From the NCBI RefSeq assembly GCF_050920415.1, contig NZ_CP169309.1: a DNA stretch of 64,000 nt; one strand, written 5' to 3'. A program made the translations under genes and the position numbers. Of this stretch, positions 3,361 to 64,000 are shown in pieces. Within the stretch, counting starts at the first letter, position 1; each line of letters begins with the position of its first letter. The notes beneath the pieces are model-generated. The model saw only the letters and a list, made by a program, of their open reading frames with translations, did no database searches and was not told where the DNA came from. Source of the DNA: Escherichia coli (GTDB taxonomy: Bacteria > Pseudomonadota > Gammaproteobacteria > Enterobacterales > Enterobacteriaceae).

Positions 3361-3368
3361 TCTTTTTT

Positions 3369-3875: not shown

Positions 3876-3912
3876 ATTTATTCAAGACGCTTACCTTGTA
3901 AGTGCACCCAGT

Positions 3913-3987
3913 TGGGGTATCGCCAAGCGGTAAGGCACCGGATTCTGATTCCGGCATTCCGAGGTTCGAATCCTCGTACCCCAGCCA
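3913..3987 (+). tRNA. glnX: tRNA-Gln (CUG)
   Basis: Identical copy of the preceding tRNA-Gln(CUG). Confidence 0.9.
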
Positions 3988-12379: not shown

Positions 12380-12536
12380 TTACAAGAACCAGGGGCGGAA
12401 ATTCCAGCCCTCTCGATTGTTACGTAGCACGGACAGACTATACGCCTGATGGTCGTTCCCCATCGGGCCTGAAAACCGCAATACGCTGGGTAACAATCTT
12501 CGAGGGTAGCAGTTAACGCTGCTACCCTCTTTTTTC
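12375..12536 (+). ncRNA. sroC: SroC-type sRNA derived from the gltI 3' end / gltI-gltJ spacer
   Basis: Assigned by position: K-12 SroC is processed from the gltI-gltJ spacer and ends at this terminator; exact 5' end not determinable from sequence. Confidence 0.45.
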
Positions 12537-12538
12537 TG
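12502..12538 (+). terminator. Intrinsic terminator/attenuator between gltI and gltJ
   Basis: gagggtagcagttaacgctgctaccctc hairpin followed by ttttttct. Confidence 0.75.
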
Positions 12539-17554: not shown

Positions 17555-19006
17555 TCAGCTAAACAACATCGCGATTTTTCCGAGAGCATAGCCTATCACC
17601 AGCACCGTTAAGCTGATTTTGATAATGCTGGTAATGCTCTGTGGTTTTTCATCCTCATCATTTTTTTCTTCGTGGTTTTCAGGTGTTGGCTCATCGACAT
17701 CTTCATCCTCCGGCTCGAGTTTCACTTTCGTCAACAGCATCCGCGTGATAATGGCCTCTAATGGATGAGCATCTCCACCTTCCAGCCTTGTATTAAGACG
17801 GGCCAGCATCTCTTGTTTCGGGAACGCTTCCAGCACAACCTGTTCCGCTACCCGATACAAATCCAGTAACGGTGAATCTTGTTCTGTCTCGCTACCGACT
17901 CTCGATTTCCACCATGCCCATGCTTTGCGTTTGAAGAATAACGACTCAATAAACGATTGACCTAACGGCGATAATTTTCCGCTATGTAAAATTTCCGCCC
18001 ATAACAGCCTCGTCCGGGCGCTCTCACCAGGAACATATTTTAGCGGCTTACCTTGCGCATCAACCATACTTCGCGCTTCGATAACCATCACTAACAGCGC
18101 GAAGTAATCCGGGCAATGTTGCGCACTCCACTGCAGTAATAAATTATCGGCTTGTGTAGATGGATAACTTTCCCAGTAACCACAGAGATCGGCAAGCATG
18201 CTTTCACCCTCGCCGCAGTACAACTGTTGCGCACACTGGTAATATCGGGCATCTTCACTTTCTGGTTCTTCCGTTTGCCACTGTTGCGCTACAGAAATGA
18301 GTTCCGCCATACCTGTTTGCACCGAGCTATACCAGCGCAACAATTTGCGATGCAACTTCGCATCATCAGGAATGAACCACGGACCTTCCATTGCCATAAA
18401 CGCAGTGACATAGTCAGGATGGTAACGGCAGCAGCGTTCCAGCGCGAAGTAATACTCAACAGTCTGGTTCTGCAACGCGACGGGATATTCCAGAAGGCTA
18501 AGGAAATCGAAACAATCACCAGCCTGAATGGCCTCAAGAAAAGCCTCCCTTTCTTCCTCATCCATTCCTTCGCTGTCATTAAACGAATGCCAGTTCAAAC
18601 GCTCTGCCAGCAAAGAAGCACAATTTAATGAAAGATATCGCGCTTCTATAGCGACTGCACACAGCGGCCAGCGTAATTGATCGACATCCTCCATGTTCCA
18701 GGTATTTAATTGCTGAATAAATTTCTGCCAGGCGGAGGGCTGAAAACGATCACTTTCAGAATCCAGTAATGCCCTGAATGCACGTAGTATTTCATGTTCA
18801 GCGGCGGCATCTTTTTCTTCATCATCTGCTTCCTCGACAGGATTTACCGCCAGTCGCAGCGCCTCTTCATAGGCCTGGCGTAATGCTTTAAACCCCTGCG
18901 GATCGGTTTCGGGATGACACAACGGTAAGCGAGCAAGATAAGCCTGGCGGATAATTTCTATTTGCGTCGTGCTTTCAATTTCGAGGATTTGCCAACATGT
19001 TTTCAT
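17555..19006 (-). CDS. djlC: Tail-anchored J-domain co-chaperone of HscC
   Basis: 483 aa; N-terminal J-like domain, C-terminal hydrophobic anchor; paralog of djlB. Confidence 0.9.
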
Positions 19007-19710
19007 AGGTCGCTTACATCCTTAAGCGTTACCGGGCATTCAGGCTGGACAGTTAATGGCTGCCAGGGAAGCGTGGCATAGAAACGGTCGCTTCCCGCTG
19101 CCAGCTCTTCGAACATCCGACTCCCGGCGCTATCGTATTTGTACAGGGTTAGCGCCTCGCGTAGCGAAGCGTTGTCTTCGCACTGAGAAGATTGCCAGTA
19201 GAGACGCCCTAACGAATAGGCGGAAAAATAGTGCATCCAGCTGTGATAGTAATGGTGTGCTCGTATATAGACACGCGATTGCAGCCATAAACTCTCGTCT
19301 TCCGTCAGCCACTTGTTGAGCACACCAACCCGTGATAAAAAACTCATCCGCACATAATCCCAGGCTTTGATTCCCCCTTCCCCACAACACATAGCGGTTT
19401 GGGTAACGAATTGGGTATAAATCAACCCTCTCTCCGAGCCGCCAGCAATTAATGCTTTCCACTCTTCAGGGGAAGAGCGATGCCATGTCAGATATAAGCC
19501 AGCTAAATCATTGGCATGACCATCATCGGTCATCTGATAAATAGTCTGAATTAAATCATCACGATTATTTATTCCCCAGGATGATGAGAGATCGAATTCT
19601 TTTATCCCGGTATACATTTTTGGCGAGTCATGCGCTGGCTTGCAACCCTGATTAAGTATTTCCATGGGTGCAGAAAGCGCAAAAAGAAGATATTGTTCTT
19701 CCTTATTCAT
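19003..19710 (-). CDS. ybeU: DUF1266-family protein
   Basis: 235 aa; paralog of ybeR; stop overlaps the djlC start (ATGA). Confidence 0.88.
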
Positions 19711-19810
19711 TTGTTAATAATCCCTTAAGTGCATTAACTGACTACTTTTTTATTATCGATGAGTATAAACTTGACGTTTTCAAAATAAAAGAAAATAGAA
19801 GTATTCAAGC

Positions 19811-20365
19811 ATGAATAAAAAATTAATGTATATATTCGCAATATTTATAGTTGCGGCAATTACCTGTATTAGCCAACCCAAGAAAACGACCCTGCGCGAT
19901 AAAGCTATGGCGAATTATGTCTTTGATTATTTAAGCTCACCGGGCAGTCTTCCGTTTACCACGGCAGCAACAGAGCTTTCCGCCATTCATGGTCACTCAA
20001 CGTCGCAATATAGACTTGGCGAATTTTATCTTCATGGTAGCGATGGTAAGCCTCTGGATTATACAAAGGCGAGATACTGGTATGAGCAATCAGCGGAACA
20101 GGAAAATCCACGCGCGCAAAGTCAACTGGGATGGATCTACCTGAAAGGTTTGGGAGTCAATCCCGATACCCGTAAAGCAATTCTCTGGTATAAGGAAGCA
20201 GCTGAACAAGGGCATGTTCATGCACAATACACGTTGGGTTTGATCTACAGAAACGGCACGGGCATTAGCACCAACAATTATGAAGCTCGCAAATGGTTAG
20301 AACTGGCGGCAGAGCAACATTATAAAAATGCGGAAAGATTACTTGCAGAGCTTCCCGCACATTAA
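19811..20365 (+). CDS. ybeT: Sel1-repeat (TPR-like) protein with N-terminal signal/anchor
   Basis: 184 aa; repeated GxGV...A..WY..AAEQG Sel1 motifs. Confidence 0.88.
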
Positions 20366-20374
20366 CGTCGACTG

Positions 20375-21802
20375 TCACCCGAACAGATGGAGTATTTTCC
20401 CTATCAAACCGGCAAAGATAAAAATGTAGAAAATAATTTTGATGACGCCCAGGCAGCCCGGCCCACCATCGTCAACGAGCATCGACTGCGGTTGCGGCTC
20501 CGGTTCGACGGTTTGCTTCTCGGTAAAATTTGCCGCCTGAATTAATAATCGACGAATCATTAATGCTTCCAGTGGACAACGATCTTCTGCATCAAGGCGG
20601 CTGACGATCGGCATTAATGATTCTTCTGTCGGTTGGCTGGCCTGAACTAATTGTTTAGCAACTAAATATAATGGCCATAAGGGATGTTCTGTATCACGCG
20701 TGAGTGAGATCCGCGGCTTACGTCCTTTGTGCAAAACCATCTCGACCAGAGAACGCCCCAGCGCAGAGAGTTTTTCATCACTGAGTATTTCGTATAAATG
20801 AAAACGCGTACGAGCGCTGTCACCAGGGACATAAAGTAGCGGTTTTCCCTGATCGTTAACCAGATCACGCGCTTCAATCATCATCACCACTAACGGGTAA
20901 TAATCGACCCGATGCTGACGGCACCATTGCAACATTAAAGCATCCGCCTGGGTGGAGGGATACTCGCGCCAGAAGTCACAAAGTTCTGCCAGCAGGCTTT
21001 CGCCTTCTCCACAATAGACGCGTTGCGCGTATTCATAATAACGCGCATCTTCATTATCAGGTTCAGCTACCCGCCACGACCGGGCGTAATCCAGAAGTTC
21101 GGGGATATCCAGACGGCTTGTGCTATACCAGCGGAGTAAATTTCTGTGCAAATTTGCATCATCGGGGATAATCACTGCGCGATGTTGCGCTAAATACAAT
21201 GTCAGCCATTCTGGATGCGATGACCAAATCCGCGCGAACATTTGGTAAAAATCAATGGTGTCATTTTGTACGGCAACGGGCAGATGCAGAATGGTCTGGA
21301 AGTTAAAAACATTCCCCTTCGCAATGGCATATAAAAAGGATTCCAGTTCTTCTTCGTCTATTTCCCCGACGTTTTCCTCCTGCAACCACCGCAATCTTTC
21401 TGCTAATAACACCACGCACTCGAAGGATAAATGGGCAGTGTTCATGGCTATTGTGCACAGCGACCAGCGTAATTCATCAATATCTTCCATCGAGCAATAA
21501 TTTAATTGCTGAATGAATCGCTGCCAGGCAGAGGGCAGAAAACGTTCGCTATCAGAGGCGAGTAACGCACGAAAGGCGAGCAGAATTTCATGTTCTGCAA
21601 CTTCATGTTCTTCTGGTTGCCAAACAGATTTAGCAGGCGACTGCGCAATCCGTAGCGCGTCCTCATACGCCTGACGAAGTTGTTTAAAACCCTGCGGATC
21701 GGTTTCTGGATGAAAGGACGGTAACAGCGCCAGATAAGCGCGGCGGATAATATCGACGTCAGTCGTTTCCTCTATTTCGAGAATATTCCAGCAATTTTTC
21801 AT
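20375..21802 (-). CDS. djlB: Tail-anchored J-domain protein, HscC co-chaperone paralog
   Basis: 475 aa; about half the residues match djlC by eye; C-terminal hydrophobic anchor. Confidence 0.9.
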
Positions 21803-22506
21803 AGGTCGCTCATATCATTAAGCGTTTCCGGACATGTGGGGTAGTCAGCCAGTGGTTGCCAGGGTAAGGTCGCGTAATATGCATCGTCACTGGCAATTAA
21901 TTGATAAAACATATCATTGCCGGAATCGTCGTATTCTTTACGTGCCAATGTTTCCCGCAATAACGGTAAATTGTCATCATCAGGAGACTGCCAGTATTGC
22001 CGGCCAAAGGTATAACCGGCAAAATACTGCCGCCAGCTGGTATAATAACGTAGCACCCGCAGGTGAAGACGCGATTGGATCCACAGGCTTTCTTCTTCGC
22101 TGAGCCAGTTATTAAGTACGCCCATCCGGCTTAAAAAACCCATACGGACATAATCCCAGGCTTTTATACCGCCTTCGCCACAACATTCGGCAGTGCTGGC
22201 GACAAACTGCGCATAAGCCTGACCTTGCTCATTTAGTTCAGCAAGATAGTCACGCCATTCACATGGAGAATAACGAAACCAGCGGTGATAAAAACCAGCC
22301 AACCGCGCAGCATGACCGTTATCCATCATTCGATGAATTGTCCGCAACAGGTCTTCACGGTCATCAATTCCCCATGAGGAAGAAAGGTCAAAAAAGCGTG
22401 TACCTAAATACATTTTGGGGGATGAATGCGAAGGTAAACAGCATTCATTGCGTATTTCCATCGGAGTGGAAAGTGCAAACAATATTTTTTGCGACTCCAT
22501 GTCCAT
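21799..22506 (-). CDS. ybeR: DUF1266-family protein
   Basis: 235 aa; paralog of ybeU; stop overlaps the djlB start (ATGA). Confidence 0.88.
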
Positions 22507-22663
22507 ATAATTTATCCTTAAACATTTATTTAATGAATGTAAACTACATTGCGAGACTCAGTTATTTATACTTTTCTGACGCAACATAATACGCATAAAA
22601 TAAGGCTTACGCAAAAATGGAATACATAAAAATATAATATGTTTTATCTACAACCATAAGGAA

Positions 22664-23647
22664 ATGATAATGATTTTTACGTCAAGTTGCTGCGATAATT
22701 TATCAATAGATGAGATTATCGAACGTGCTGAAAAAGGCGATTGCGAGGCTCAATATATTGTTGGGTTTTATTATAATCGCGATAGCGCAATTGACTCTCC
22801 GGACGACGAAAAGGCCTTTTACTGGCTGAAGCTGGCCGCTGAGCAAGGTCATTGTGAAGCACAATATTCCTTAGGGCAAAAGTATACCGAGGATAAAAGC
22901 CGTCATAAAGATAATGAGCAAGCCATCTTTTGGCTGAAAAAAGCAGCCCTACAAGGACATACTTTCGCTTCCAACGCCCTTGGCTGGATACTGGATCGTG
23001 GAGAAGACCCCAACTATAAAGAAGCGGTTGTCTGGTATCAGATAGCCGCGGAGAGCGGAATGTCTTATGCGCAAAATAATCTTGGGTGGATGTACAGAAA
23101 TGGCAACGGAGTCACACAAGATTATGCGCTGGCATTTTTCTGGTACAAACAAGCTGCATTGCAAGGCCATAGTTACGCACAAGACAATCTGGCCGATCTT
23201 TATGAAGACGGTAAAGGTGTTGCTCAAAACAAGACACTCGCCGCATTCTGGTATTTGAAAAGCGCACAGCAGGGTAATCGGCATGCCCAGTTTCAAATTG
23301 CATGGGATTATAACGCTGGCGAAGGGGTGGACCAGGACTATAAGCAAGCGATGTACTGGTATCTGAAGGCTGCCGCTCAGGAAAGCGTCGGCGCTTACGT
23401 TAACATCGGCTATATGTATAAACACGGTCAAAGCGTTGAGAAGGATTATCAGGCCGCCTTTGAATGGTTTACGAAAGCCGCTGAATGCGATAATGCCACT
23501 GCCTGGTATAACCTTGCCATTATGTATCATTACGGAGAAGGAAGACCTGTCGATCTCCGACAGGCTCTCGATCTGTATCGTAAAGCTCAGTCATCCGGTA
23601 CCAGGGATGTCAGTCAAAAAATCCGTGAGATTGAAGATTTACTGTAG
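22664..23647 (+). CDS. ybeQ: Sel1-repeat protein
   Basis: About 325 aa with at least six Sel1-type repeats; exact start (22664 or 22670) uncertain. Confidence 0.85.
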   Translation: MIMIFTSSCCDNLSIDEIIERAEKGDCEAQYIVGFYYNRDSAIDSPDDEKAFYWLKLAAEQGHCEAQYSLGQKYTEDKSRHKDNEQAIFWLKKAALQGHTFASNALGWILDRGEDPNYKEAVVWYQIAAESGMSYAQNNLGWMYRNGNGVTQDYALAFFWYKQAALQGHSYAQDNLADLYEDGKGVAQNKTLAAFWYLKSAQQGNRHAQFQIAWDYNAGEGVDQDYKQAMYWYLKAAAQESVGAYVNIGYMYKHGQSVEKDYQAAFEWFTKAAECDNATAWYNLAIMYHYGEGRPVDLRQALDLYRKAQSSGTRDVSQKIREIEDLL

Positions 23648-37582: not shown

Positions 37583-37841
37583 TTGCATACATCAATGGCC
37601 CAATTTACACTGGGTCATTACTCATAATACCTGCTAATGCTTTACATCTCCTTCGCGTTTGTATATTTTCTTTATCACTTGCAGAAATGCGATGCTACGC
37701 CTTGCTCCGTAACTCACCCCATTGATTAACTTATTGAAATAGTTGATTATGGTGAGCAAAAGCGTTCCGTTCCAATTAGACATAAGATTATTGTAATTTT
37801 TTTAAATATTATTTTTCCATGAATAAAATTGGAGTAAGTGC

Positions 37842-38795
37842 GTGGATAGTAATAATCAAATTGAAACCTGTTTAAGCAGAAAGTCGTCAGAAGGTAAACC
37901 ACAAATATTTACAACCTTACGAAATATTGATCTTAACCTTCTGACTATTTTTGAAGCTGTGTATGTGCATAAAGGGATCGTTAATGCAGCGAAAGTGCTT
38001 AATCTGACACCCTCAGCAATCAGTCAGTCTATTCAGAAACTGCGCGTTATATTCCCTGACCCATTGTTTATTCGCAAAGGCCAGGGCGTCACTCCTACTG
38101 CATTTGCAATGCATTTGCATGAGTATATCAGTCAGGGCCTTGAATCCATTCTCGGCGCGCTGGATATCGAAGGAACCTATGATAAGCAACGAACGATAAC
38201 TATCGCGACCACCCCCTCGGTCGGAGCCCTGGTCCTTCCAGTCATCTATCGGGCGATTAAAACTCATTATCCGCAGCTTTTACTGCGCAACCCCCCTATC
38301 AGCGACGCGGAAAGCCAACTCAGTCAGTTTCAAACCGATCTCATCATTGATAACATGTTCTGCACCAATCGTACGGTACAACATCATGTTCTGTTCACCG
38401 ACAATATGGTGTTAATTTGCCGCGAGGGAAATTCGCTACTCTCCTTAGAAGATGACAGAGAGACTATCGAAAACGCTGCACATGTACTCCTGTTACCGGA
38501 AGGGCAAAATTTCAGCGGTTTGCGGCAGAGAGTTCAAGAGATGTTTCCGGACCGACAAATCAGTTTTACCAGCTACAACATTCTCACAATCGCTGCACTG
38601 GTTGCCAACAGTGACATGTTAGCGATTATTCCCAGCCGTTTTTATAATCTGTTTAGCCGTTGCTGGCCGCTGGAAAAGCTGCCTTTTCCGTCCTTAAATG
38701 AGGAGCAAATTGATTTCTCTATCCACTACAACAAATTCAGCCTGCGCGATCCTATCCTGCATGGGGTTATAGATGTTATCCGTAATGCATTTTGA
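37842..38795 (+). CDS. ybeF: LysR-family transcriptional regulator
   Basis: 317 aa; N-terminal LysR HTH; AT-rich gene; HTH region closely matches ybdO in this window. Confidence 0.88.
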   Translation: MDSNNQIETCLSRKSSEGKPQIFTTLRNIDLNLLTIFEAVYVHKGIVNAAKVLNLTPSAISQSIQKLRVIFPDPLFIRKGQGVTPTAFAMHLHEYISQGLESILGALDIEGTYDKQRTITIATTPSVGALVLPVIYRAIKTHYPQLLLRNPPISDAESQLSQFQTDLIIDNMFCTNRTVQHHVLFTDNMVLICREGNSLLSLEDDRETIENAAHVLLLPEGQNFSGLRQRVQEMFPDRQISFTSYNILTIAALVANSDMLAIIPSRFYNLFSRCWPLEKLPFPSLNEEQIDFSIHYNKFSLRDPILHGVIDVIRNAF

Positions 38796-41673: not shown

Positions 41674-41706
41674 CAAAAAAAACCCGCTGATTAAGCGGGT
41701 TTTGAA
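41674..41706. terminator. Bidirectional intrinsic terminator between convergent crcB and cspE
   Basis: aaaaaaaacccgctgattaagcgggttttg. Confidence 0.75.
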
Positions 41707-41722
41707 TTCTTGCTGACGTATC

Positions 41723-41932
41723 TTACAGAGCGATTACGTTTGCAGCAGAAGGGCCTTTGGCACCGTTAGTGATTTCGAACTCTACGCGCTGACCTTCAGC
41801 AAGAGTTTTAAAACCATTAGTCTGGATTGCAGAGAAGTGTACGAACACGTCTTTGCTGCCGTCTTCCGGAGTAATGAAACCGAATCCTTTGGACTCATTA
41901 AACCACTTAACGTTACCTTTAATCTTAGACAT
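41723..41932 (-). CDS. cspE: Cold-shock-domain protein CspE
   Basis: 69 aa from [20 protein letters not shown] (RNP1 motif); the track ORF is an upstream in-frame extension. Confidence 0.93.
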
Positions 41933-42106
41933 CAAAATTACCTTTACATGAAAAATAGACACAAATGCTGTGTCGGTTACCAGTACACCAATTGTGGTAC
42001 GCTTTGTCCAGTGCAACTTTACTAAAAAGTGATAAAAGTCGCGTTATTTTTGATGTTAATTATTTTACTCATTGATTTTAAAGAAGTTACTAAAATTTCA
42101 TTTGTC

Positions 42107-47368: not shown

Positions 47369-48427
47369 ATGTTCGGCAATGATATTTTCACCCGTGTAAA
47401 ACGTTCAGAAAATAAAAAAATGGCGGAAATCGTCCAATTCCTGCATGAAAATGATTTGAGCGTTGACACCACAGTCGAAGTATTTATTACCGTAACCCGC
47501 GATGAAAAGCTTATCGCGTGCGGTGGAATTGCCGGAAATATTATTAAATGCGTTGCTATCAGTGAATCCGTTCGCGGTGAAGGACTGGCGCTGACATTAG
47601 CCACTGAATTGATAAACCTCGCCTATGAGCGGCACAGCACGCATCTGTTTATTTATACCAAAACCGAATACGAGGCGCTGTTCCGCCAGTGCGGTTTTTC
47701 CACGCTGACCAGTGTACCCGGCGTGATGGTGCTGATGGAAAACAGCGCCACGCGACTGAAACGCTATGCCGAATCGCTGAAAAAATTTCGTCATCCAGGG
47801 AACAAGATTGGCTGCATTGTGATGAACGCCAATCCCTTTACGAATGGTCACCGTTATCTGATTCAACAGGCTGCAGCACAGTGCGACTGGTTGCATCTGT
47901 TTTTAGTTAAAGAAGATTCTTCACGCTTTCCCTATGAAGACCGGCTGGATCTGGTGTTAAAAGGCACCGCCGATATTCCACGCCTGACTGTGCATCGCGG
48001 CTCCGAATACATCATCTCCCGCGCTACGTTCCCTTGCTACTTCATTAAAGAACAGAGCGTCATTAACCATTGTTACACCGAAATTGATCTGAAGATTTTC
48101 CGTCAGTACCTCGCTCCCGCGCTGGGTGTAACTCACCGCTTTGTCGGTACTGAACCCTTTTGTCGCGTTACCGCCCAGTACAACCAGGATATGCGCTACT
48201 GGCTGGAAACGCCGACTATCTCCGCACCGCCCATCGAACTGGTTGAAATTGAGCGGCTGCGTTACCAGGAGATGCCGATATCCGCTTCCCGGGTACGTCA
48301 ACTGCTGGCGAAAAACGATCTCACGGCTATCGCGCCGCTGGTCCCTGCAGTCACGCTGCATTATTTGCAGAACCTGCTTGAGCACTCCCGCCAGGACGCG
48401 GCAGCTCGTCAAAAGACCCCCGCATGA
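47369..48427 (+). CDS. citC: [Citrate (pro-3S)-lyase] ligase
   Basis: 352 aa from MFGNDIFTRV; heads the citCDEFXG operon. Confidence 0.9.
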   Translation: MFGNDIFTRVKRSENKKMAEIVQFLHENDLSVDTTVEVFITVTRDEKLIACGGIAGNIIKCVAISESVRGEGLALTLATELINLAYERHSTHLFIYTKTEYEALFRQCGFSTLTSVPGVMVLMENSATRLKRYAESLKKFRHPGNKIGCIVMNANPFTNGHRYLIQQAAAQCDWLHLFLVKEDSSRFPYEDRLDLVLKGTADIPRLTVHRGSEYIISRATFPCYFIKEQSVINHCYTEIDLKIFRQYLAPALGVTHRFVGTEPFCRVTAQYNQDMRYWLETPTISAPPIELVEIERLRYQEMPISASRVRQLLAKNDLTAIAPLVPAVTLHYLQNLLEHSRQDAAARQKTPA

Positions 48428-48441
48428 GAAACAGGTGAAAA

Positions 48442-48738
48442 ATGAAAATAAACCAGCCCGCCGTTGCAGGCACCCTTGAGTCTGGGGATGTGATGATACG
48501 CATCGCCCCACTCGATACGCAGGATATCGACCTGCAAATCAACAGCAGCGTTGAAAAACAGTTTGGTGATGCCATTCGCACCACCATTCTGGACGTTCTC
48601 GCCCGCTACAACGTGCGCGGCGTACAGCTGAATGTCGATGACAAAGGCGCACTGGACTGCATTTTACGTGCACGACTGGAAGCCCTGCTGGCACGCGCCA
48701 GCGGTATCCCGGCTCTGCCATGGGAGGATTGCCAATGA
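48442..48738 (+). CDS. citD: Citrate lyase acyl carrier protein (gamma subunit)
   Basis: 98 aa; recognised CitD sequence. Confidence 0.93.
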
Positions 48739-49643
48739 TTTCCGCTTCGCTGCAACAACGTAAAACTCGCACCCGCCGCAGCATGTTGTTTGTGCCTGGT
48801 GCCAATGCCGCGATGGTCAGCAACTCATTCATCTACCCGGCTGATGCCCTGATGTTTGACCTCGAAGACTCCGTAGCATTGCGTGAAAAAGACACCGCCC
48901 GCCGCATGGTTTACCACGCGCTGCAACATCCGCTGTATCGCGATATTGAAACCATTGTGCGTGTAAACGCGCTGGATTCCGAATGGGGTGTCAACGACCT
49001 GGAAGCCGTCGTTCGCGGTGGTGCGGACGTTGTGCGTCTGCCGAAAACCGATACCGCTCAGGATGTTCTGGATATCGAAAAAGAGATCCTGCGTATCGAA
49101 AAAGCCTGTGGTCGTGAACCCGGCAGTACCGGCTTGCTGGCGGCGATTGAATCTCCGCTGGGCATTACCCGCGCAGTGGAAATCGCTCACGCTTCCGAGC
49201 GTTTGATCGGTATCGCCCTCGGTGCAGAAGACTATGTGCGCAACCTGCGTACAGAACGCTCCCCGGAAGGAACTGAACTGCTGTTCGCTCGCTGCTCCAT
49301 TTTGCAGGCCGCGCGATCTGCGGGTATTCAGGCGTTCGATACCGTCTATTCTGACGCAAACAACGAAGCCGGATTCCTGCAAGAAGCCGCCCACATCAAA
49401 CAGCTGGGCTTTGACGGCAAATCGCTGATCAACCCGCGTCAGATTGATCTGCTGCACAACCTCTACGCACCGACCCAGAAAGAAGTGGATCACGCCCGCC
49501 GCGTCGTAGAAGCCGCTGAAGCCGCCGCTCGCGAAGGCCTCGGCGTGGTTTCCCTGAACGGCAAGATGGTGGACGGTCCGGTTATCGATCGCGCCCGTCT
49601 GGTGCTCTCCCGCGCAGAACTTTCCGGCATCCGCGAAGAATAA
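48735..49643 (+). CDS. citE: Citrate lyase beta subunit (citryl-CoA lyase)
   Basis: 302 aa from [10 protein letters not shown]; overlaps the citD stop. Confidence 0.93.
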
Positions 49644-49653
49644 GGCAATCAAA

Positions 49654-51186
49654 ATGACGCAGAAAATTGAACAATCTCAACGACAAGAACGGGTAGCGGC
49701 CTGGAATCGTCGCGCTGAATGCGATCTTGCCGCTTTCCAGAACTCGCCAAAGCAAACCTACCAGGCTGAAAAAGCGCGCGATCGCAAACTGTGCGCCAAC
49801 CTGGAAGAAGCGATTCGTCGCTCTGGTTTACAGGACGGCATGACGGTTTCCTTCCATCACGCTTTCCGTGGCGGTGACCTGACCGTCAATATGGTGATGG
49901 ACGTCATCGCGAAGATGGGCTTTAAAAACCTGACTCTGGCCTCCAGCTCCCTGAGTGATTGCCATGCGCCGCTGGTAGAACACATTCGCCAGGGCGTGGT
50001 TACCCGCATTTATACCTCTGGCCTGCGCGGTCCACTGGCGGAAGAAATCTCCCGTGGTCTGCTGGCGGAACCGGTGCAAATCCACTCTCACGGCGGACGT
50101 GTGCATCTGGTACAGAGCGGCGAACTGAATATCGATGTGGCTTTCCTCGGCGTCCCGTCCTGTGATGAATTCGGTAATGCCAACGGCTACACCGGTAAAG
50201 CCTGCTGCGGCTCCCTCGGCTATGCAATGGTTGATGCCGACAACGCAAAACAGGTCGTGATGCTTACCGAAGAACTGCTGCCTTATCCGCATAATCCGGC
50301 AAGCATTGAGCAAGATCAGGTTGATCTGATCGTCAAAGTCGATCGCGTTGGCGATGCTGCAAAAATCGGCGCTGGTGCTACCCGTATGACCACTAACCCG
50401 CGCGAACTGCTTATTGCCCGTAGCGCTGCGGATGTGATTGTCAACTCAGGCTACTTTAAAGAAGGTTTCTCCATGCAGACCGGCACCGGCGGCGCATCGC
50501 TGGCGGTAACCCGTTTCCTGGAAGACAAAATGCGTAGCCGCGATATTCGCGCCGACTTCGCCCTTGGCGGTATTACCGCAACGATGGTTGATCTGCACGA
50601 AAAAGGTCTGATCCGCAAACTGCTGGATGTACAGAGCTTTGACAGCCACGCTGCACAATCGCTGGCCCGTAACCCCAATCACATCGAAATCAGCGCCAAC
50701 CAGTACGCTAACTGGGGTTCAAAAGGTGCATCGGTTGATCGTCTCGACGTGGTGGTACTGAGCGCGCTGGAAATTGACACCCAGTTCAACGTTAACGTGC
50801 TGACCGGCTCTGACGGCGTACTGCGTGGCGCTTCCGGTGGTCACTGCGATACCGCGATTGCCTCTGCACTTTCCATCATCGTCGCACCGCTGGTACGCGG
50901 TCGTATTCCGACTCTGGTGGATAACGTGCTGACCTGCATCACCCCGGGCTCCAGTGTCGATATTCTGGTCACAGACCACGGTATCGCAGTTAACCCGGCA
51001 CGTCCGGAACTGGCAGAACGTCTGCAGGAAGCGGGGATCAAAGTGGTTTCTATTGAGTGGCTGCGTGAACGTGCGCGTCTGCTGACCGGTGAACCACAGC
51101 CGATTGAATTCACCGACCGCGTCGTTGCCGTTGTGCGTTACCGCGATGGCTCGGTGATCGATGTTGTGCATCAGGTGAAGGAATAA
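49654..51186 (+). CDS. citF: Citrate lyase alpha subunit (citrate CoA-transferase)
   Basis: 510 aa. Confidence 0.95.
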   Translation: MTQKIEQSQRQERVAAWNRRAECDLAAFQNSPKQTYQAEKARDRKLCANLEEAIRRSGLQDGMTVSFHHAFRGGDLTVNMVMDVIAKMGFKNLTLASSSLSDCHAPLVEHIRQGVVTRIYTSGLRGPLAEEISRGLLAEPVQIHSHGGRVHLVQSGELNIDVAFLGVPSCDEFGNANGYTGKACCGSLGYAMVDADNAKQVVMLTEELLPYPHNPASIEQDQVDLIVKVDRVGDAAKIGAGATRMTTNPRELLIARSAADVIVNSGYFKEGFSMQTGTGGASLAVTRFLEDKMRSRDIRADFALGGITATMVDLHEKGLIRKLLDVQSFDSHAAQSLARNPNHIEISANQYANWGSKGASVDRLDVVVLSALEIDTQFNVNVLTGSDGVLRGASGGHCDTAIASALSIIVAPLVRGRIPTLVDNVLTCITPGSSVDILVTDHGIAVNPARPELAERLQEAGIKVVSIEWLRERARLLTGEPQPIEFTDRVVAVVRYRDGSVIDVVHQVKE

Positions 51187-51189
51187 GCC

Positions 51190-52594
<1,405 letters not shown>

Positions 52595-52644
52595 TTATTT
52601 AAGCACTTGATAAATTTGGAAATATTAATTTTCGGAGAACCCGT

Positions 52645-54108
52645 ATGTCTTTAGCAAAAGATAATATATGGAAACTATTGGCCCCACTGGTGGTGATGGG
52701 CGTCATGTTTCTTATCCCTGTCCCCGACGGTATGCCACCGCAGGCATGGCATTACTTCGCTGTGTTTGTGGCAATGATTGTCGGCATGATCCTCGAGCCA
52801 ATTCCGGCAACAGCGATCAGTTTTATTGCGGTTACTATTTGCGTTATTGGCAGTAATTACCTTCTCTTTGATGCCAAAGAATTAGCTGACCCAGCGTTTA
52901 ATGCGCAAAAACAGGCGCTGAAATGGGGTCTGGCTGGTTTTTCCAGCACCACGGTATGGCTGGTATTTGGCGCATTTATTTTTGCATTAGGGTATGAAGT
53001 TTCCGGGTTAGGTCGTCGCATTGCCCTTTTCCTGGTGAAATTCATGGGCAAACGCACGCTGACGTTAGGTTATGCGATAGTCATTATCGACATTCTGCTG
53101 GCACCGTTTACACCGTCCAACACCGCGCGTACCGGGGGTACGGTTTTTCCGGTCATTAAAAACCTGCCGCCGCTGTTTAAATCATTCCCGAACGATCCGT
53201 CCGCGCGTCGTATTGGCGGCTATTTGATGTGGATGATGGTCATTAGTACCAGTCTGAGTTCGTCCATGTTTGTCACCGGTGCGGCACCAAACGTGCTGGG
53301 TCTGGAGTTCGTCAGCAAAATTGCCGGCATCCAGATTAGCTGGTTGCAGTGGTTCCTCTGCTTCCTGCCGGTTGGCGTTATCTTACTTATCATTGCGCCG
53401 TGGCTTTCCTACGTGCTTTACAAACCGGAAATCACACACAGTGAAGAAGTAGCAACCTGGGCGGGTGATGAACTAAAAACCATGGGTGCGCTGACACGCA
53501 GAGAGTGGACGCTGATTGGCCTTGTATTGCTCAGCTTAGGTTTGTGGGTATTTGGCAGTGAAGTCATTAATGCTACTGCGGTAGGTCTGCTGGCAGTTTC
53601 GCTAATGCTGGCCCTGCACGTTGTGCCGTGGAAAGACATTACCCGCTATAACAGCGCATGGAACACGCTGGTCAACCTGGCAACTTTGGTTGTGATGGCT
53701 AATGGCCTGACTCGTTCTGGCTTTATTGACTGGTTCGCCGGTACCATGAGTACGCACCTGGAAGGATTCTCACCAAACGCAACGGTGATTGTACTGGTTC
53801 TGGTGTTCTACTTTGCGCACTACCTGTTTGCCAGCCTGTCTGCGCACACCGCAACCATGCTGCCGGTTATTCTGGCCGTCGGTAAAGGTATTCCGGGCGT
53901 ACCAATGGAACAACTGTGTATCCTGCTGGTGCTGTCTATCGGTATCATGGGCTGTCTGACGCCGTATGCAACCGGTCCTGGGGTGATTATTTACGGCTGC
54001 GGCTATGTGAAATCAAAAGATTACTGGCGACTTGGTGCAATCTTCGGGGTGATTTACATCTCTATGTTGCTGTTGGTTGGCTGGCCGATTCTCGCCATGT
54101 GGAACTAA
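52645..54108 (+). CDS. citT: Citrate:succinate antiporter
   Basis: 487-aa polytopic membrane protein, DASS family. Confidence 0.93.
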   Translation: MSLAKDNIWKLLAPLVVMGVMFLIPVPDGMPPQAWHYFAVFVAMIVGMILEPIPATAISFIAVTICVIGSNYLLFDAKELADPAFNAQKQALKWGLAGFSSTTVWLVFGAFIFALGYEVSGLGRRIALFLVKFMGKRTLTLGYAIVIIDILLAPFTPSNTARTGGTVFPVIKNLPPLFKSFPNDPSARRIGGYLMWMMVISTSLSSSMFVTGAAPNVLGLEFVSKIAGIQISWLQWFLCFLPVGVILLIIAPWLSYVLYKPEITHSEEVATWAGDELKTMGALTRREWTLIGLVLLSLGLWVFGSEVINATAVGLLAVSLMLALHVVPWKDITRYNSAWNTLVNLATLVVMANGLTRSGFIDWFAGTMSTHLEGFSPNATVIVLVLVFYFAHYLFASLSAHTATMLPVILAVGKGIPGVPMEQLCILLVLSIGIMGCLTPYATGPGVIIYGCGYVKSKDYWRLGAIFGVIYISMLLLVGWPILAMWN

Positions 54109-55028: not shown

Positions 55029-55257
55029 TCCTCTGATTTACAAAAGACGCTAATTCGTCTTCCATAAACTATGACGATTAAGATTTATACATAATGCGCT
55101 GCATTGAGGAATTCCCTGAATGTGACGCAAATCACTTCAAAGAGTGAGCAACAGTCAGTATCATCATGTGAGTTAAACCCTCGCCGCCTGACGGTGAGGG
55201 TTTTCTTTTGGGTATGTTTATCTGCGACACTCGCAGTACCGACGACATGGAGTAAAA

Positions 55258-59245: not shown

Positions 59246-59992
59246 ATGTTAAAAAAGATACTTTTACTGGCTCTGCTTCCTACAATCGCCTTTGCAGAGG
59301 AACTTCCTGCTCCGGTAAAAGCGATTGAAAAACAGGGCATTAAGATCATCAAAACGTTCGATGCCCCCGGCGGAATGAAAGGTTATCTCGGCAAGTATCA
59401 GGATATGGGCGTCACCATCTACCTGACTCCAGATGGTAAGCACGCTATCTCTGGTTACATGTACAACGAGAAAGGTGAAAACCTGAGTAACATGCTTATC
59501 GAAAAAGAAATTTATGCGCCAGCCGGACGCGAAATGTGGCAACGGATGGAACAATCGCACTGGCTCCTCGACGGTAAAAAAGACGCGCCAGTCATAGTCT
59601 ACGTTTTCGCCGATCCGTTCTGCCCATATTGTAAACAGTTCTGGCAGCAGGCGCGCCCGTGGGTTGATTCTGGCAAAGTACAGTTGAGAACATTGTTGGT
59701 TGGGGTTATCAAACCAGAAAGTCCGGCGACAGCCGCGGCAATTCTGGCCTCTAAAGATCCCGCAAAAACCTGGCAAGAATATGAAGCCTCTGGCGGCAAA
59801 CTTAAGCTAAATGTGCCTACAAACGTAAGTGCAGAGCAAATGAAAGTGTTAAGCGACAACGAGAAACTCATGGACGATCTGGGGGCAAATGTCACACCGG
59901 CTATCTATTACATGAGTAAGGAAAATACGCTGCAACAGGCCGTGGGGTTGCCCGATCAGAAAACGCTTAATATCATCATGAGAAATAAATAG
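59246..59992 (+). CDS. dsbG: Periplasmic thiol:disulfide interchange protein DsbG
   Basis: 248 aa from [17 protein letters not shown]; CPYC active site; divergent from ahpC. Confidence 0.93.
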
Positions 59993-60199
59993 AAGGTAAT
60001 TCATGGGTGGTTGAAATACATTCTTGCTTTTCAACCATTCTAAAAACGCATGAATTGCTTCTTCCCCTCCTGACAACTGTGTTACTTTAGAAAAACTTAA
60101 TCCAGAGTTAAGTAATAAAACATAACAAATATAAATAAAACAGTAGAATCATTGATTGCAAGAATGATTTATGGAAAAGATAATATAACGGAGTATGTT

Positions 60200-61102
60200 A
60201 TGGCTAATCTTTATGATTTAAAAAAATTCGACCTCAATTTACTGGTCATATTTGAGTGCATTTATCAACACCTCAGCATTAGCAAAGCAGCAGAATCATT
60301 ATATATAACGCCATCTGCCGTTAGTCAGTCGTTACAACGTTTACGCGTGCAATTTAATGACCCGTTATTCATCCGCTCAGGGAAAGGTATCGCGCCGACT
60401 ACAACAGGGTTAAATCTGCATCACCATCTTGAGAAAAATCTCCGAGGCCTTGAACAAACGATCAATATCGTTAATAAGTCTGAGCTGAAGAAAAATTTTA
60501 TTATCTACGGTCCTCAGCTTATTTCTTGTAGTAATAACAACATGCTAATCCGCTGTCTAAGACAAGATACTTCAATCGATATAGAATGCCATGACATACT
60601 GCTTTCAGCTGAAAACGCTGAAGAATTGTTAGTTCAACGCAAAGCTGACCTGGCAATTACACTGCAACCAGTAATTAGCCGCTCTGTCATCTGCATGCCG
60701 GTACATACTATTCGCAATTCTCTTATATGTAGCAACAAACATCCTCGTATTACCGATACCAGTAACTATGAACAAATTATCGCCGAAGAATTCACCTTGT
60801 TGATATCTAAATCAGCAGGGATTGACGAAATTCAAATGGACATAGATGAACGTTTTATGAACCGTAAAGTTTCATTTCGCAGTTCTTCTTTGTTGACGAT
60901 AATTAATAGTATTTCTGTTACTGACTTATTGGGCATTGTGCCCACCGAACTGTACGATTTACATCGTGATTTTTTGAAGTTACAAGAGATAAAACTGGAA
61001 CGACCACTTCCTACGGTTAAACTTTATATTTCCTATAACAAGGCTTCGTTGAACAACCTTGTCTTCTCACGATTCATAGATCGTTTAAATGATAGCTTCT
61101 GA
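60200..61102 (+). CDS. ybdO: LysR-family transcriptional regulator (AT-rich)
   Basis: 300 aa from MANLYDLKKFDLNLL; LysR HTH closely matching ybeF. Confidence 0.88.
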   Translation: MANLYDLKKFDLNLLVIFECIYQHLSISKAAESLYITPSAVSQSLQRLRVQFNDPLFIRSGKGIAPTTTGLNLHHHLEKNLRGLEQTINIVNKSELKKNFIIYGPQLISCSNNNMLIRCLRQDTSIDIECHDILLSAENAEELLVQRKADLAITLQPVISRSVICMPVHTIRNSLICSNKHPRITDTSNYEQIIAEEFTLLISKSAGIDEIQMDIDERFMNRKVSFRSSSLLTIINSISVTDLLGIVPTELYDLHRDFLKLQEIKLERPLPTVKLYISYNKASLNNLVFSRFIDRLNDSF

Positions 61103-61248
61103 TTTATTACCACGGATAAATGTTATATTACGCATCAATTGATTCATTGTGTGAATATAAAATAATGTGCTCTATCTTGCTTCGTTTACCCTATAATTAG
61201 CGGATTCATCTCACAAGTCACCCAGTAACGTTCAGAGAGCGTTTTCAG

Positions 61249-62469
61249 ATGTCTATTTATAAAATCCCTCTTCCGCTGAATATTTTAGAAGCTGCACAGG
61301 AACGTATTACCTGGACACTTAACACCTTGCCCCGTGTTTGCGTTTCTTTTTCGGGGGGTAAAGATTCCGGATTAATGCTGCATCTTACCGCCGAACTTGC
61401 CAGAAAATTGGGAAAAAAAATCTGCGTTTTGTTTATCGACTGGGAAGCACAGTTCTCTTGTACCATCGACTATGTACAGTCGTTACGCGAGTTGTATACC
61501 GACGTTATTGAAGAGTTTTACTGGGTAGCACTCCCACTCAAGACGCAAAATTCCCTTTCACAATACCAACCAGAATGGCAGTGCTGGGAATCTGATGTCG
61601 AATGGGTGCGTCAGCCCCCGCAAGAAGCGATAACCGATCCTGACTTTTTCTCCTTTTACCAGCCAGGCATGACCTTCGAACAATTTGTACGTGAGTTTGC
61701 CGAATGGTTTTCACAAAAACGTCCGGCGGCGATGATGATCGGCATCCGTGCGGATGAGTCCTACAACCGTTTTGTCGCCATCGCCAGTTTAAATAAACAA
61801 CGTTTTGCCGATGATAAGCCCTGGACCACAGCCGCACCAGGCGGTCACTGCTGGTACATTTACCCCATCTACGACTGGAAAGTAGCTGATATCTGGACCT
61901 GGTATGCTAATCATAAATCCCTATGTAACCCATTGTATAATATCATGTATCAGGCAGGCGTTCCCCTGCGTCATATGCGAATTTGCGAACCTTTTGGCCC
62001 GGAGCAACGGCAAGGATTATGGCTCTATCACGTTATCGAACCGGATCGCTGGGCTGCTATGTGCGCACGAGTTAGCGGGGTAAAAAGTGGCGGCATTTAC
62101 GCCGGACATGACAATCATTTTTATGGTCATCGGAAAATCCTCAAACCAGAGCATTTAGACTGGCAAGAGTATGCATTATTGCTGCTTGATAGCATGCCGG
62201 AGAAAACGGCTGAGCATTACCGCAACAAAATTGCCATTTACTTGCATTGGTATCAGAAAAAAGGTATCGAGGTGCCACAGACCCAGGACGGGGACATTGG
62301 CGCGAAAGATATCCCCTCCTGGCGGCGAATTTGCAAGGTGTTACTGAATAACGATTACTGGTGTCGGGCATTATCATTTAGCCCAACCAAAGCGAAGAAT
62401 TATCAGCGTTATAACGAACGGATAAAAGTAAAACGTCAGGAGTGGGGAATACTATGCAACAACAATTAA
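61249..62469 (+). CDS. ybdN: PAPS-reductase-like (PP-loop ATP pyrophosphatase fold) protein, IbrA-like
   Basis: 406 aa; SFSGGKDS PP-loop motif. Confidence 0.88.
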   Translation: MSIYKIPLPLNILEAAQERITWTLNTLPRVCVSFSGGKDSGLMLHLTAELARKLGKKICVLFIDWEAQFSCTIDYVQSLRELYTDVIEEFYWVALPLKTQNSLSQYQPEWQCWESDVEWVRQPPQEAITDPDFFSFYQPGMTFEQFVREFAEWFSQKRPAAMMIGIRADESYNRFVAIASLNKQRFADDKPWTTAAPGGHCWYIYPIYDWKVADIWTWYANHKSLCNPLYNIMYQAGVPLRHMRICEPFGPEQRQGLWLYHVIEPDRWAAMCARVSGVKSGGIYAGHDNHFYGHRKILKPEHLDWQEYALLLLDSMPEKTAEHYRNKIAIYLHWYQKKGIEVPQTQDGDIGAKDIPSWRRICKVLLNNDYWCRALSFSPTKAKNYQRYNERIKVKRQEWGILCNNN

Positions 62470-63071
62470 CGCAGGATTTAACCCAATTTCTCGCCAGCTT
62501 GCCGGAAGACGATCGCATCAAAGCGATTAACGAAATCCGCCTGGCGATCCATCAGGTTAGCCCCTTTCGTGAAGAGCCAGTAGATTGTGTTCTGTGGGTT
62601 AAAAACAGCCAACTTATGCCAAATGATTACAACCCAAACAATGTGGCACCGCCCGAGAAAAAACTGTTACAAAAATCCATTGAGATAGATGGTTTTACCC
62701 AACCTATTGTGGTCACGCACACAGATAAAAATGCTCTGGAAATCGTGGATGGCTTTCACCGTCATGAAATTGGTAAAGGCTCTAACACGTTAAAAATGCG
62801 ATTAAAAGGATATTTACCGGTCACCTGTCTGGAAGGAACACGTAACGAACGCATCGCCGCGACTATTCGTCATAACCGCGCTCGTGGACGCCACCAAATC
62901 ACAGCCATGTCAGAAATCGTTCGTGAACTCAGCCAGTTAGGATGGGACGACAATAAAATCGGCAAAGAGCTGGGTATGGACAGCGACGAAGTGTTGCGCC
63001 TGAAACAAATTAACGGCCTGCAAGAGTTATTTGCTGACCGTCAATATTCCCGCGCCTGGACAGTAAAATAA
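62442..63071 (+). CDS. ybdM: ParB/sulfiredoxin-like nuclease-domain protein, IbrB-like
   Basis: 209 aa; overlaps the ybdN 3' end (GTG at 62442, alternative ATG at 62454). Confidence 0.85.
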   Translation: MGNTMQQQLTQDLTQFLASLPEDDRIKAINEIRLAIHQVSPFREEPVDCVLWVKNSQLMPNDYNPNNVAPPEKKLLQKSIEIDGFTQPIVVTHTDKNALEIVDGFHRHEIGKGSNTLKMRLKGYLPVTCLEGTRNERIAATIRHNRARGRHQITAMSEIVRELSQLGWDDNKIGKELGMDSDEVLRLKQINGLQELFADRQYSRAWTVK

Positions 63072-64000
63072 TTACAGCTGGCGCAGGCGTTCAGCTGCCG
63101 CCAGCAACGTCGATTCCTTCTTGGCAAAACAGAGACGAATGAGCTTATGGGGGAAGGGATCGGCGCAAAATACCGACAGCGGGATCGCCGCCACGCCATG
63201 CTCCCGCGTCAGCCTCTGGCAAAACTCAACGTCATCCAGCGAAGAAACCGCGCTGTAATCCACCAGCAAAAAGTAAGTGCCTTCGCACGGTAAAATCTCC
63301 AGCCGACTCTCACTTAAGGCATTCACCAGAATATCGCGCTTCTGGCGATAAAAGTCCGGTAACGCAAGGTAGTGTTCAGGTTCTGCTCGCAGCATATCGG
63401 CAAGGGCCAGCTGCGCCGGGGTATTCACCGAAAAAGTCAGATACTGATGCACTTTGCGGATCTCGGCGCTGATGGGCGCAGGCGCAACGCAATAGCCCAC
63501 TTTCCAGCCGGTCATATGATAGGTCTTGCCAAACGATGACACCGCCACCGCCCGCTCACGCAGTTGCGGATGCGCCAGCACACTGGCATGGTCCTGCTGT
63601 GAAAAGTTGATATGCTCGTAAACTTCATCGCTAATGACAAAAATCTCGTGCCCGGCAATTGCCTGCCACAAAGCGGAAAAATCAGTCTGCTGCCAGACAG
63701 TAGCACTGGGGTTATGCGGGGTGTTAAGGATCACCAGTCGGGTGCGCTCGCTTAACAATGCGGCAAATTCCTGCCAGTCCACGCGAAAATGCGGTGGTTG
63801 CAGTGCAATACGTTTCACTATTCCACCCGCAAGCGTGATGGCGGGGGCGTAACTGTCATAGCTGGGATCAAAGCAAATCACTTCATCGCCATTGCGCACC
63901 AATGCAGTAATCGCTGCGTACAGCGCTTCCGTCGCCCCTGCTGTTACGGTGATATCGCTGTCGGCATCTGGTTGATAGCCATACAGCCGTTCCGTTTTCT
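63072..64000 (-). CDS. ybdL: PLP-dependent aminotransferase (methionine aminotransferase), C-terminal part; 5' end lies beyond the window
   Basis: Frame stays open to the window edge on the minus strand; class I aminotransferase-like sequence. Confidence 0.88.
   Translation of the reverse strand, partial: KTERLYGYQPDADSDITVTAGATEALYAAITALVRNGDEVICFDPSYDSYAPAITLAGGIVKRIALQPPHFRVDWQEFAALLSERTRLVILNTPHNPSATVWQQTDFSALWQAIAGHEIFVISDEVYEHINFSQQDHASVLAHPQLRERAVAVSSFGKTYHMTGWKVGYCVAPAPISAEIRKVHQYLTFSVNTPAQLALADMLRAEPEHYLALPDFYRQKRDILVNALSESRLEILPCEGTYFLLVDYSAVSSLDDVEFCQRLTREHGVAAIPLSVFCADPFPHKLIRLCFAKKESTLLAAAERLRQL

Follow-up and report, generated by a model that had tools for sequence, protein, structure and literature searches.

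LysR-type regulators consist of an N-terminal winged helix-turn-helix (HTH) and a C-terminal effector domain resembling periplasmic binding proteins. One of these regulators, YbdO, is currently named CitR. The renaming is due to Rodionova et al. 2022 (PMC9068703), who reported a CitR ChIP-exo peak at its own locus, derepression of ybdNM in a citR deletion, and up-regulation of citC, citE, and citF in that deletion (their Table 1). Fan et al. 2022 (PMC9141747) found that YbdO directly activates the K1 capsule promoter, kpsM, and that H-NS represses ybdO, the repression being relieved by acid pH. H-NS repression and high substitution have both been reported for ybdO (PMC4720273, PMC9141747), and its transcription start was placed 106-107 nt upstream of the ATG (PMC4720273). 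A ChIP-exo study listed four YbdO sites: inside ybdO and at ybgD, ygiL, and yjjP (PMC8464067 supplement). This list contains no CitR binding site at citCDEFXGT. Overall, the literature assigns ybdNM, the cit genes, and kpsM to YbdO as targets, as well as genes of the oxidative-stress response. Thus, an earlier reading of the present DNA made from the letters alone (the sequence-only reading), which held that neither regulator has a known target, was wrong for CitR.

For YbeF, the ChIP-exo study listed three very weak sites, at moeB, yfiD, and yihQ (signal/noise 1.1-4.3; PMC8464067 supplement). The yihQ site occurs at essentially the same coordinates in the preceding table, apparently that of YjhI, and the YbdO and YbeF lists do not overlap (PMC8464067). 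Deletion of either ybeF or citR lowers lrhA and raises the FlhDC regulon (PMC9068703, 2022). The paralogy of the two proteins, with 30% identity, was also published in 2022.

We analyzed a window of 64,000 nucleotides of an Escherichia coli chromosome, spanning nagD/asnB to ybdL; the term refers to this whole stretch. Annotation was taken from the RefSeq record of E. coli MFDS1022581 (NZ_CP169399.1, 3518661-3582660), which has 5 mismatches with respect to the window. Both ybeF and citR are real, intact genes (Table 1). The coordinates given by the sequence-only reading, 37842-38795 for ybeF and 60200-61102 for ybdO, were exact, as were the peptide strings that it quoted. A possible alternative TTG start of citR lies upstream at 60152, from which the ORF would encode 316 aa. 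Both products matched the two Pfam models of the family: PF00126 (HTH_1; cut-off 26.6 bits) with 54.1 bits for YbeF and 65.5 bits for YbdO, and PF03466 (LysR_substrate; cut-off 28 bits) with 54.6 and 40 bits, respectively. YbeF matched the NCBIfam equivalog model NF008554 over positions 1-317 of 317 with 606.7 bits (cut-off 277), and CitR matched the equivalog model NF047710 with 454.5 bits (cut-off 400). On the latter model YbeF scored 177, under the cut-off of 400, and is therefore not a CitR. From what is known of the family, YbeF and CitR are ordinary LysR-type regulators, probably acting as tetramers that bend promoter DNA.

Table 1. Features of the ybeF and citR loci, with positions in the window.
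Feature	Position	Strand	Basis and remarks
ybeF, LysR-type transcriptional regulator	37842..38795	+	ORF, 317 aa, GTG start; RefSeq "YbeF family transcriptional regulator"
citR (ybdO), LysR-type transcriptional repressor	60200..61102	+	ORF, 300 aa; RefSeq annotation
YbeF winged helix-turn-helix (residues 31-89)	37932..38108	+	Pfam PF00126; 59% identical to CitR HTH
YbeF effector-binding domain (residues 116-316)	38187..38789	+	Pfam PF03466
CitR winged helix-turn-helix	60233..60409	+	Pfam PF00126; residues 28-86 of the 316-aa ORF from 60152
lipB-ybeF intergenic region, presumed ybeF promoter	37583..37841	.	34.4% GC, seventh lowest of 32 intergenic regions; function inferred
dsbG-citR intergenic region	59993..60199	.	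30% GC; citR promoter and upstream H-NS element per literature
ybdN-ybdM operon, CitR-repressed published direct target	61249..63071	+	Annotation; PMC9068703
citCDEFXGT citrate lyase/transport operon, between both regulators	47369..54108	+	Annotation; up on citR deletion (PMC9068703)
392-bp ybeF segment deleted in some E. coli (pseudogene allele)	38366..38757	+	Alignment with strain Esc21
Equivalent of strongest YbdO ChIP-exo peak (K-12 636934-636965)	60853..60884	.	PMC8464067 coordinates moved via ungapped citR alignment

Each gene is oriented in the same direction as both of its neighbours (lipB>ybeF>lipA and dsbG>citR>ybdN). The divergent arrangement with a regulated neighbour that is typical of LysR-type regulators is absent at both genes, a common exception that does not disqualify them. 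By coordinate transfer, the published citR start site would fall near 60093. Promoter and terminator scans of both loci yielded consensus-level matches alone, for citR near chance frequency, and defined no transcription units; an Rfam scan of the whole window found no RNA element at ybeF or citR.

We compared the two proteins with each other and with a baseline of 136 pairs drawn from 17 E. coli LysR proteins. In addition to YbeF and CitR, these were LeuO, NhaR, CynR, LrhA, OxyR, CysB, Cbl, Nac, YidZ, DsdC, HdfR, IlvY, GcvA, LysR, and TdcA from K-12, that is, 15 of the ~45 other LysR proteins of E. coli. Pairs were ranked using BLAST bit scores and a multiple alignment rather than free-end-gap global alignment, the artefacts of which (LeuO-CysB at "50%" over 4 columns, HdfR-YbeF at "47%" over 30 columns) were ignored. 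YbeF and CitR aligned in BLASTP with 30% identity over 302 aa (128 bits, E = 2e-39). By bit score, this placed them third of the 136 pairs, behind CysB-Cbl and DsdC-GcvA, where the median was 49 bits. In the multiple alignment, their overall identity of 31% lay approximately 1.4 sd above the mean of 25% (sd 4%). Identity within the HTH was 59%, the highest of all 136 pairs and 3.4 sd over the mean of 33% (sd 8%); outside the HTH it was 22%, ranking eleventh (mean 15%, sd 4%). YbeF and CitR were also reciprocal second-best matches among the NCBIfam models, at 177 and 163 bits, followed by the LeuO/BsrA models at 87-117 bits and all others at <65 bits. Judged from these comparisons, YbeF and CitR are paralogues beyond generic LysR similarity, distant ones whose likeness is concentrated in the DNA-binding domain. 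We considered a recent duplication in E. coli and rejected it, since the two share only 30% identity and separate orthologues of each occur in other genera.

The wider subfamily was collected by searching 1.84 billion cluster representatives with YbeF and then comparing CitR to the hits by BLAST. A bootstrapped neighbour-joining tree was calculated from capped distances. The YbeF clade of this tree comprised proteins of Klebsiella (52-53% identity), Mangrovibacter (48-49%), and Rahnella (43%), and the CitR clade those of Salmonella (54%) and Franconibacter (45%) together with one further cluster. Some 28 more clusters were roughly 25-39% identical to YbeF or CitR. The resulting group of ~37 clusters had a bootstrap value of 0.68, and LeuO and 14 other E. 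coli LysR proteins fell outside it. Its N-terminal signature was DLNLL..FE..Y ... TPSA[IV]SQS.Q.LR..F.DPLF[IV]R.G.G..PT, of which the portion DLNLL..FE..Y ... TPSA[IV]SQS.Q.LR..F.DPLF[IV]R was present through the whole 37-cluster group. All named members of the 20 clusters that were looked up belonged to the Enterobacterales, and included Hafnia, Edwardsiella, Budvicia, Enterobacillus, Dryocola, and extra Rahnella paralogues; on the evidence of these named members, the subfamily would be a radiation confined to this order. The distant members in Hafnia and Enterobacillus occupied unrelated gene contexts. Against CitR, approximately 10 clusters outscored E. coli YbeF, such as one from Hafnia with 39% identity and 199 bits. 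Since these relatives are closer to CitR than YbeF is, the E. coli proteins are cousins and not a duplicate pair. The tree itself was built from near-saturated distances and had weak inner nodes (bootstrap 0.23-0.28) below the group node at 68%; it thus suggests, rather than proves, that the two are not sisters.

The genomic contexts of the two genes were then compared among genera, with seven representative proteins of the subfamily looked up for their neighbours. As the sequence-only reading had stated, both lie between housekeeping genes: ybeF in dacA-ybeD-lipB/lipA-tatE and citR in ahpCF-dsbG/ybdNM-ybdL. The order mrdB-rlpA-dacA-ybeD-lipB-[ybeF]-lipA-tatE recurred in Klebsiella, Mangrovibacter, and Rahnella. 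In published gene orders, Enterobacter and Salmonella likewise carry ybeF in the lipB-lipA interval, and the more distant Yersinia and Shewanella have lipB-lipA without ybeF (PMC4398509). For citR, the order ahpF-ahpC-dsbG-[citR] was found in Salmonella and Franconibacter; in Salmonella it continues into ybdNM-ybdL, and in Franconibacter, which lacks ybdNM there, ybdL comes next. The slots of ybeF and citR are 21.4 kb apart in the window, and their conservation in other genera means that each gene has long occupied a position of its own. YbeF was 52, 49, and 43% identical to its counterparts in Klebsiella, Mangrovibacter, and Rahnella, respectively; for LipA in the same genera the values were 96, 94, and 89%, and for LipB 81, 78, and 67%. 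The YbeF gradient thus runs parallel to those of LipA and LipB, as expected under vertical descent. We observed that ybeF and citR are the fastest-evolving genes of their syntenic blocks. Neither gene in the window has an annotated integrase, IS element, or tRNA gene beside it. Almost every one of 5426 complete E. coli genomes contained ybeF, and the same was true of citR.

The adjacency of lipB and lipA in Shewanella and Yersinia implies that ybeF was inserted at some point. This insertion happened within the Enterobacterales, and nothing ties the event to citR. On our preferred reading, ybeF has probably occupied the lipB-lipA interval from the common ancestor of the Enterobacteriaceae and Rahnella onward, or longer, and citR has probably followed dsbG from a time that preceded the separation of Escherichia, Salmonella, and Franconibacter. 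Given that Yersinia has lipB-lipA without ybeF (PMC4398509), an independent transfer of ybeF into Rahnella, in place of loss in Yersinia, could conceivably account for the distribution.

Base composition was evaluated for the 60 annotated genes, which averaged 50.6% GC (sd 3.9) in a window of 50.0% GC. The description of both regulators as markedly AT-rich in the sequence-only reading held for citR and was overstated for ybeF. Thus, citR had the lowest GC content of all 60 genes (37.9%, z = -3.3; GC3 37.2%) and the second-lowest value of a window-referenced index resembling codon adaptation, whereas ybeF was fourth lowest in GC (44.8%, z = -1.5; GC3 46.9%), close to ybeD, cspE, and pagP, and seventh lowest in the index. 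The 15 other E. coli LysR genes ranged from 42.2 to 57.6% GC, which puts ybeF within the family range and citR under it. Relative to its neighbours, ybeF differed by +2 GC points in Klebsiella, -2 in Mangrovibacter, -6 in Rahnella, and about -6 in the window. The gene is accordingly not GC-neutral everywhere, its Rahnella copy being 6 points under the neighbours. The corresponding differences for citR were -14 points in Salmonella, -8 in Franconibacter, and about -13 in the window, and both E. coli citR alleles described below were AT-rich (37.9% and 38.6% GC). The AT-richness of citR may be a maintained property tied to H-NS silencing, and the GC dip of ybeF would be a slight departure specific to the lineage, of the kind usual in a fast-evolving gene with weak expression. 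If so, AT-richness in common is not a common foreign signature.

Variation within E. coli also differed between the two genes. The window and K-12 copies of citR were 79.4% identical in nucleotides and 88.7% in amino acids, with a dS of ~2.2 and a dN/dS of 0.03. For ybeF, the identities were 95.1% and 97.8%, respectively, and dS was 0.21, as compared to 0.02-0.04 for ahpC, lipA, and ybeD. The divergent core, 60018-61216, corresponds to citR plus its two intergenic regions, of which the dsbG-citR region was 77% identical to that of K-12. Among 5346 genomes, citR identity was bimodal: 1744 genomes were at at least 95%, 3543 at 60-80%, and 59 between. E. coli has two citR allele classes, ~21% apart in DNA and 11% in protein. 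The window gene belongs to the minority class and is SE15-like at the gene start. This bimodality extends, without going beyond, the diversification described by Higashi et al. In strain Esc21, ybeF is shortened by a 392-bp deletion (38366-38757) and is annotated as frameshifted and incomplete. Coverage of ybeF was <80% in 1056 of 5423 E. coli genomes (up to about 19%), which appears consistent with widespread truncation of the gene. Since it seems to be incomplete in as many as roughly one in five E. coli genomes, ybeF appears dispensable.

Based on these comparisons, we consider it likely that YbeF and CitR are anciently separated members of one LysR subfamily, resident in their own slots and without a joint arrival. 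A reader sceptical of any special relationship could hold that the likeness is merely generic conservation of the LysR HTH and that the pair is no closer than random family members: the overall identity of 31% is just ~1.4 sd over the 136-pair mean (25%, sd 4%), the identity outside the HTH is only 22%, and the HTH motif quoted by the sequence-only reading is common to many other proteins. We give this hardly any credence against a bit-score rank of 3 among 136 pairs, a first-ranked HTH identity at +3.4 sd, reciprocal second-best NCBIfam models with a 60-bit margin, and a subfamily that leaves out all 15 other E. coli LysR proteins tested. The same results bear out the claim of a paralogous LysR pair with alike HTHs, including its full-length alignment, which exceeds those of random LysR pairs. 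The further claim, that both genes share a horizontal origin, takes them as remnants of one AT-rich import, or of two from the same donor, with overlapping regulons. Several observations agree with such an import. Both genes are under the window mean in GC, their HTHs are the most alike of any E. coli LysR pair tested, and lrhA is down and the FlhDC regulon up in both deletion mutants; ybdO has been treated as a horizontally transferred, H-NS-bound gene (PMC4720273), and the lipB-lipA adjacency in Shewanella and Yersinia means that ybeF was inserted at some point. Nevertheless, the genes occupy different conserved slots 21.4 kb apart, each syntenic in other genera, and their identity gradients run parallel to those of the flanking genes. 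In addition, ybeF is at or near neighbour level in GC in Klebsiella (+2) and Mangrovibacter (-2), mobile-element genes are annotated at neither site, approximately 10 relatives are closer to CitR than YbeF is, and the ChIP-exo site lists are without overlap. A shared import is very unlikely on this evidence and is already largely refuted by synteny; the claim of a shared horizontal origin is accordingly not supported. Among the cluster representatives searched, neither regulator was the nearest relative of the other.

An origin outside the lineage is easier to entertain for citR on its own. It would have come from a foreign source long ago, its AT-richness and hypervariability being maintained by H-NS silencing or by import of alleles on repeated occasions, and ybeF would have arisen separately by duplication and transposition within the Enterobacterales. 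This reading is a sharper version of the best explanation. It accords with the 8-14 GC points by which citR lies under its neighbours in three genera, with the published repression by H-NS, with two allele classes ~21% apart (dS ~2.2, dN/dS 0.03), with a divergent core, 60018-61216, that takes in citR and the flanking intergenic regions, and with the presence of citR without ybdNM in Franconibacter. Set against these points, every named relative is enterobacterial, no donor lineage emerged, and AT-richness may also develop in situ. We therefore hold the separate import of citR only tentatively, as somewhat improbable though a serious contender. A more ambitious proposal has two separate parts. 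The citR dimorphism, two AT-rich classes at a single site with a dN/dS of 0.03 and very few intermediates, would be long-lived and selected, with the alleles having partly different regulons; and YbeF, to judge from the persistence of its gene in the lipB-lipA interval across enterobacterial genera, would sense a lipoate- or octanoate-related signal and control lipA. We regard this as improbable. If true, the dimorphism would explain why ybdO deletion lowers virulence in a K1 strain and raises it in an avian pathogenic strain. The reading that we prefer remains that of two anciently separated relatives in their own slots.

With respect to function, the two regulators stand apart. The citR gene is H-NS-silenced and persistently AT-rich, its product binding within or near its own gene and repressing the downstream ybdNM; effects of CitR on cit, capsule, and oxidative-stress genes are as published. 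The strongest YbdO ChIP-exo peak, transferred to the window, falls inside citR, in its 3' portion, and ybdN begins some 365-396 bp further downstream. Comparison of two E. coli alleles and Salmonella revealed no conservation at this site. The other ChIP-exo sites, at ybgD, ygiL, and yjjP, lie at loci that we take to be H-NS-silenced. For ybeF, a literature search found no report of H-NS binding. YbeF has no convincing direct target: its ChIP-exo sites are weak and the flagellar phenotype is indirect. The protein may be poorly expressed or inactive under laboratory conditions. The conserved position of ybeF hints at a possible link with lipA.

The overlapping regulons proposed by the sequence-only reading agree with the transcriptomes, in which lrhA falls and the FlhDC regulon rises in either deletion mutant, but not with the ChIP-exo lists. 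As the binding lists do not overlap, regulon overlap rests only on the flagellar/lrhA transcriptome change common to both deletions, and the published YbdO and YbeF ChIP-exo lists contain no binding support for that change. Secondary motility mutations in deletion collections can yield such flagellar phenotypes. The phenotype of both Keio-type deletions could also represent real cross-talk.

Overall, the two genes are a familiar and unremarkable part of the E. coli chromosome and carry little weight as a finding: earlier publications cover their paralogy at 30% identity, the silencing of ybdO by H-NS, its high rate of substitution, and the targets of CitR. The loci caution against reading recent or shared horizontal transfer from AT-richness beside core genes alone. 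Here, ybeF is a long-established syntenic gene whose GC is close to that of its surroundings in Klebsiella and Mangrovibacter, two of the three other genera compared, and citR has stayed AT-rich in an unchanged position in three or more genera. Small leads for work on H-NS-silenced regulators or on the control of lipoate synthesis come from the bimodality of the citR alleles and from how often ybeF seems to be truncated.

Among described systems, the nearest are the K-12 proteins themselves. The window citR is the same gene as that of K-12 CitR (YbdO, b0603) at the same locus, dsbG-citR-ybdNM, and differs in being of the minority allele class; the published ChIP-exo and EMSA binding data all come from other alleles or strains. 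The window ybeF is the same gene as K-12 YbeF (b0629), between lipB and lipA, with no material difference. The closest solved structures for both proteins were LysR regulators of the DntR/NahR type (PDB 1utb, 2uye, 5ae4) and PA0477 (2esn). The same set was matched in nearly the same order by YbeF and CitR (E = 5e-18 and 4e-15), the matches spanning the HTH and most of the effector domain at a distant relationship. Next in sequence is the branch of LeuO (E. coli) and BsrA (Pseudomonas), whose models are the next-best for YbeF and CitR and which has the N-terminal motifs DLNLL and F.D.LF[IV]R in common with them. LeuO nevertheless lies outside the 37-cluster YbeF/CitR group at just ~22-26% identity, and YbeF and CitR score under the cut-off of the LeuO model. 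Like citR, leuO is GC-poor (45.7%), and it is H-NS-silenced. LeuO binding sites presumably fall at H-NS-silenced, AT-rich loci and in this resemble those of CitR. By this likeness, CitR may act at H-NS-covered promoters, and a role as an H-NS antagonist would be a lead to follow for CitR.

The identity of citR, the LysR-type repressor gene currently so named in place of ybdO, and of its flanking intergenic regions to the corresponding region of E. coli K-12 was 67-81% (60018-61216). Left of about 59100, the identity was mostly 95-100%. Between the window and K-12, the dS of citR was ~2.2 and the dN/dS was 0.03. Across 5346 E. coli genomes, citR identity was bimodal: it was at least 95% in 1744 genomes and 60-80% in 3543, with only 59 in between. 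The allele of the window is similar to that of strain SE15 and belongs to the minority class. Within citR, the two otherwise highly divergent alleles share an island of 93-100% identity (60351-60455). Counted from the start codon, the island spans approximately +152 to +256, and it codes for the LRVQFNDPLFIRSGKG wing region. Negative regulatory elements were mapped by Higashi et al., and these lie near the island.

The divergence was not confined to citR. From dsbG to ybdL at the end of the window (59268-64000), the citR core excepted, the identity to K-12 was about 85-95%, and the dS of ybdN and ybdM was ~0.45. The genes to the left of this stretch were mostly 95-100% identical to those of K-12. 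The comparison points to a more extensive block, divergent or recombined, which would continue past the end of the window.

The best database match of the window, NZ_CP169399.1, differed from it only by single bases at 14914, 15540, 23432, 47102, and 49721; no annotated gene gained a stop codon through these differences. A second GC-poor block, containing djlC, ybeU, ybeT, djlB, ybeR, and ybeQ, was observed at 17555-23647: the GC content was 44-48% in the genes and 25-26% in the intergenic regions. The codon-adaptation-like values of ybeU, ybeR, and ybeT were among the lowest in the window. RNA features are listed below.

RNA features located in the window
Feature	Position	Basis
sroC sRNA, after gltI	12375-12537	Rfam match
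cspA-type thermoregulator, on the cspE leader	41675-42088	Rfam match
rnk leader	55104-55212	Rfam match
tRNA cluster, seven tRNAs	3284-3987	

In ybeF, the LysR-type regulator gene between lipB and lipA, a 392-bp deletion in strain Esc21 (equivalent to window positions 38366-38757) removes most of the effector domain, and the gene is annotated in that strain as a frameshifted partial gene. Coverage of ybeF was below 80% in 1056 of 5423 complete E. coli genomes; truncation of this gene therefore looks common in the species. The strongest ChIP-exo site reported for YbeF is in yihQ, at K-12 positions 4066579-4066621 (PMC8464067 supplement). It nearly coincides with another site, 4066582-4066627, which is listed one table earlier in that supplement; the earlier table seems to belong to YjhI, an unrelated regulator. 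The yihQ locus may be non-specific and easily immunoprecipitated.

For YbdO, the window position equivalent to the strongest published ChIP-exo peak falls within the citR coding region (60853-60884). Adjoining this position is a promoter-like hexamer pair, TTCGCA-16-GATAAT (60876-60903), which matches at the consensus level only; this predicted element could be the promoter of ybdNM, the published target operon of CitR. In Franconibacter helveticus (locus L019, 6001-8106), citR is followed directly by ybdL, without ybdNM. The regulator is therefore not in every case coupled to its published target operon.
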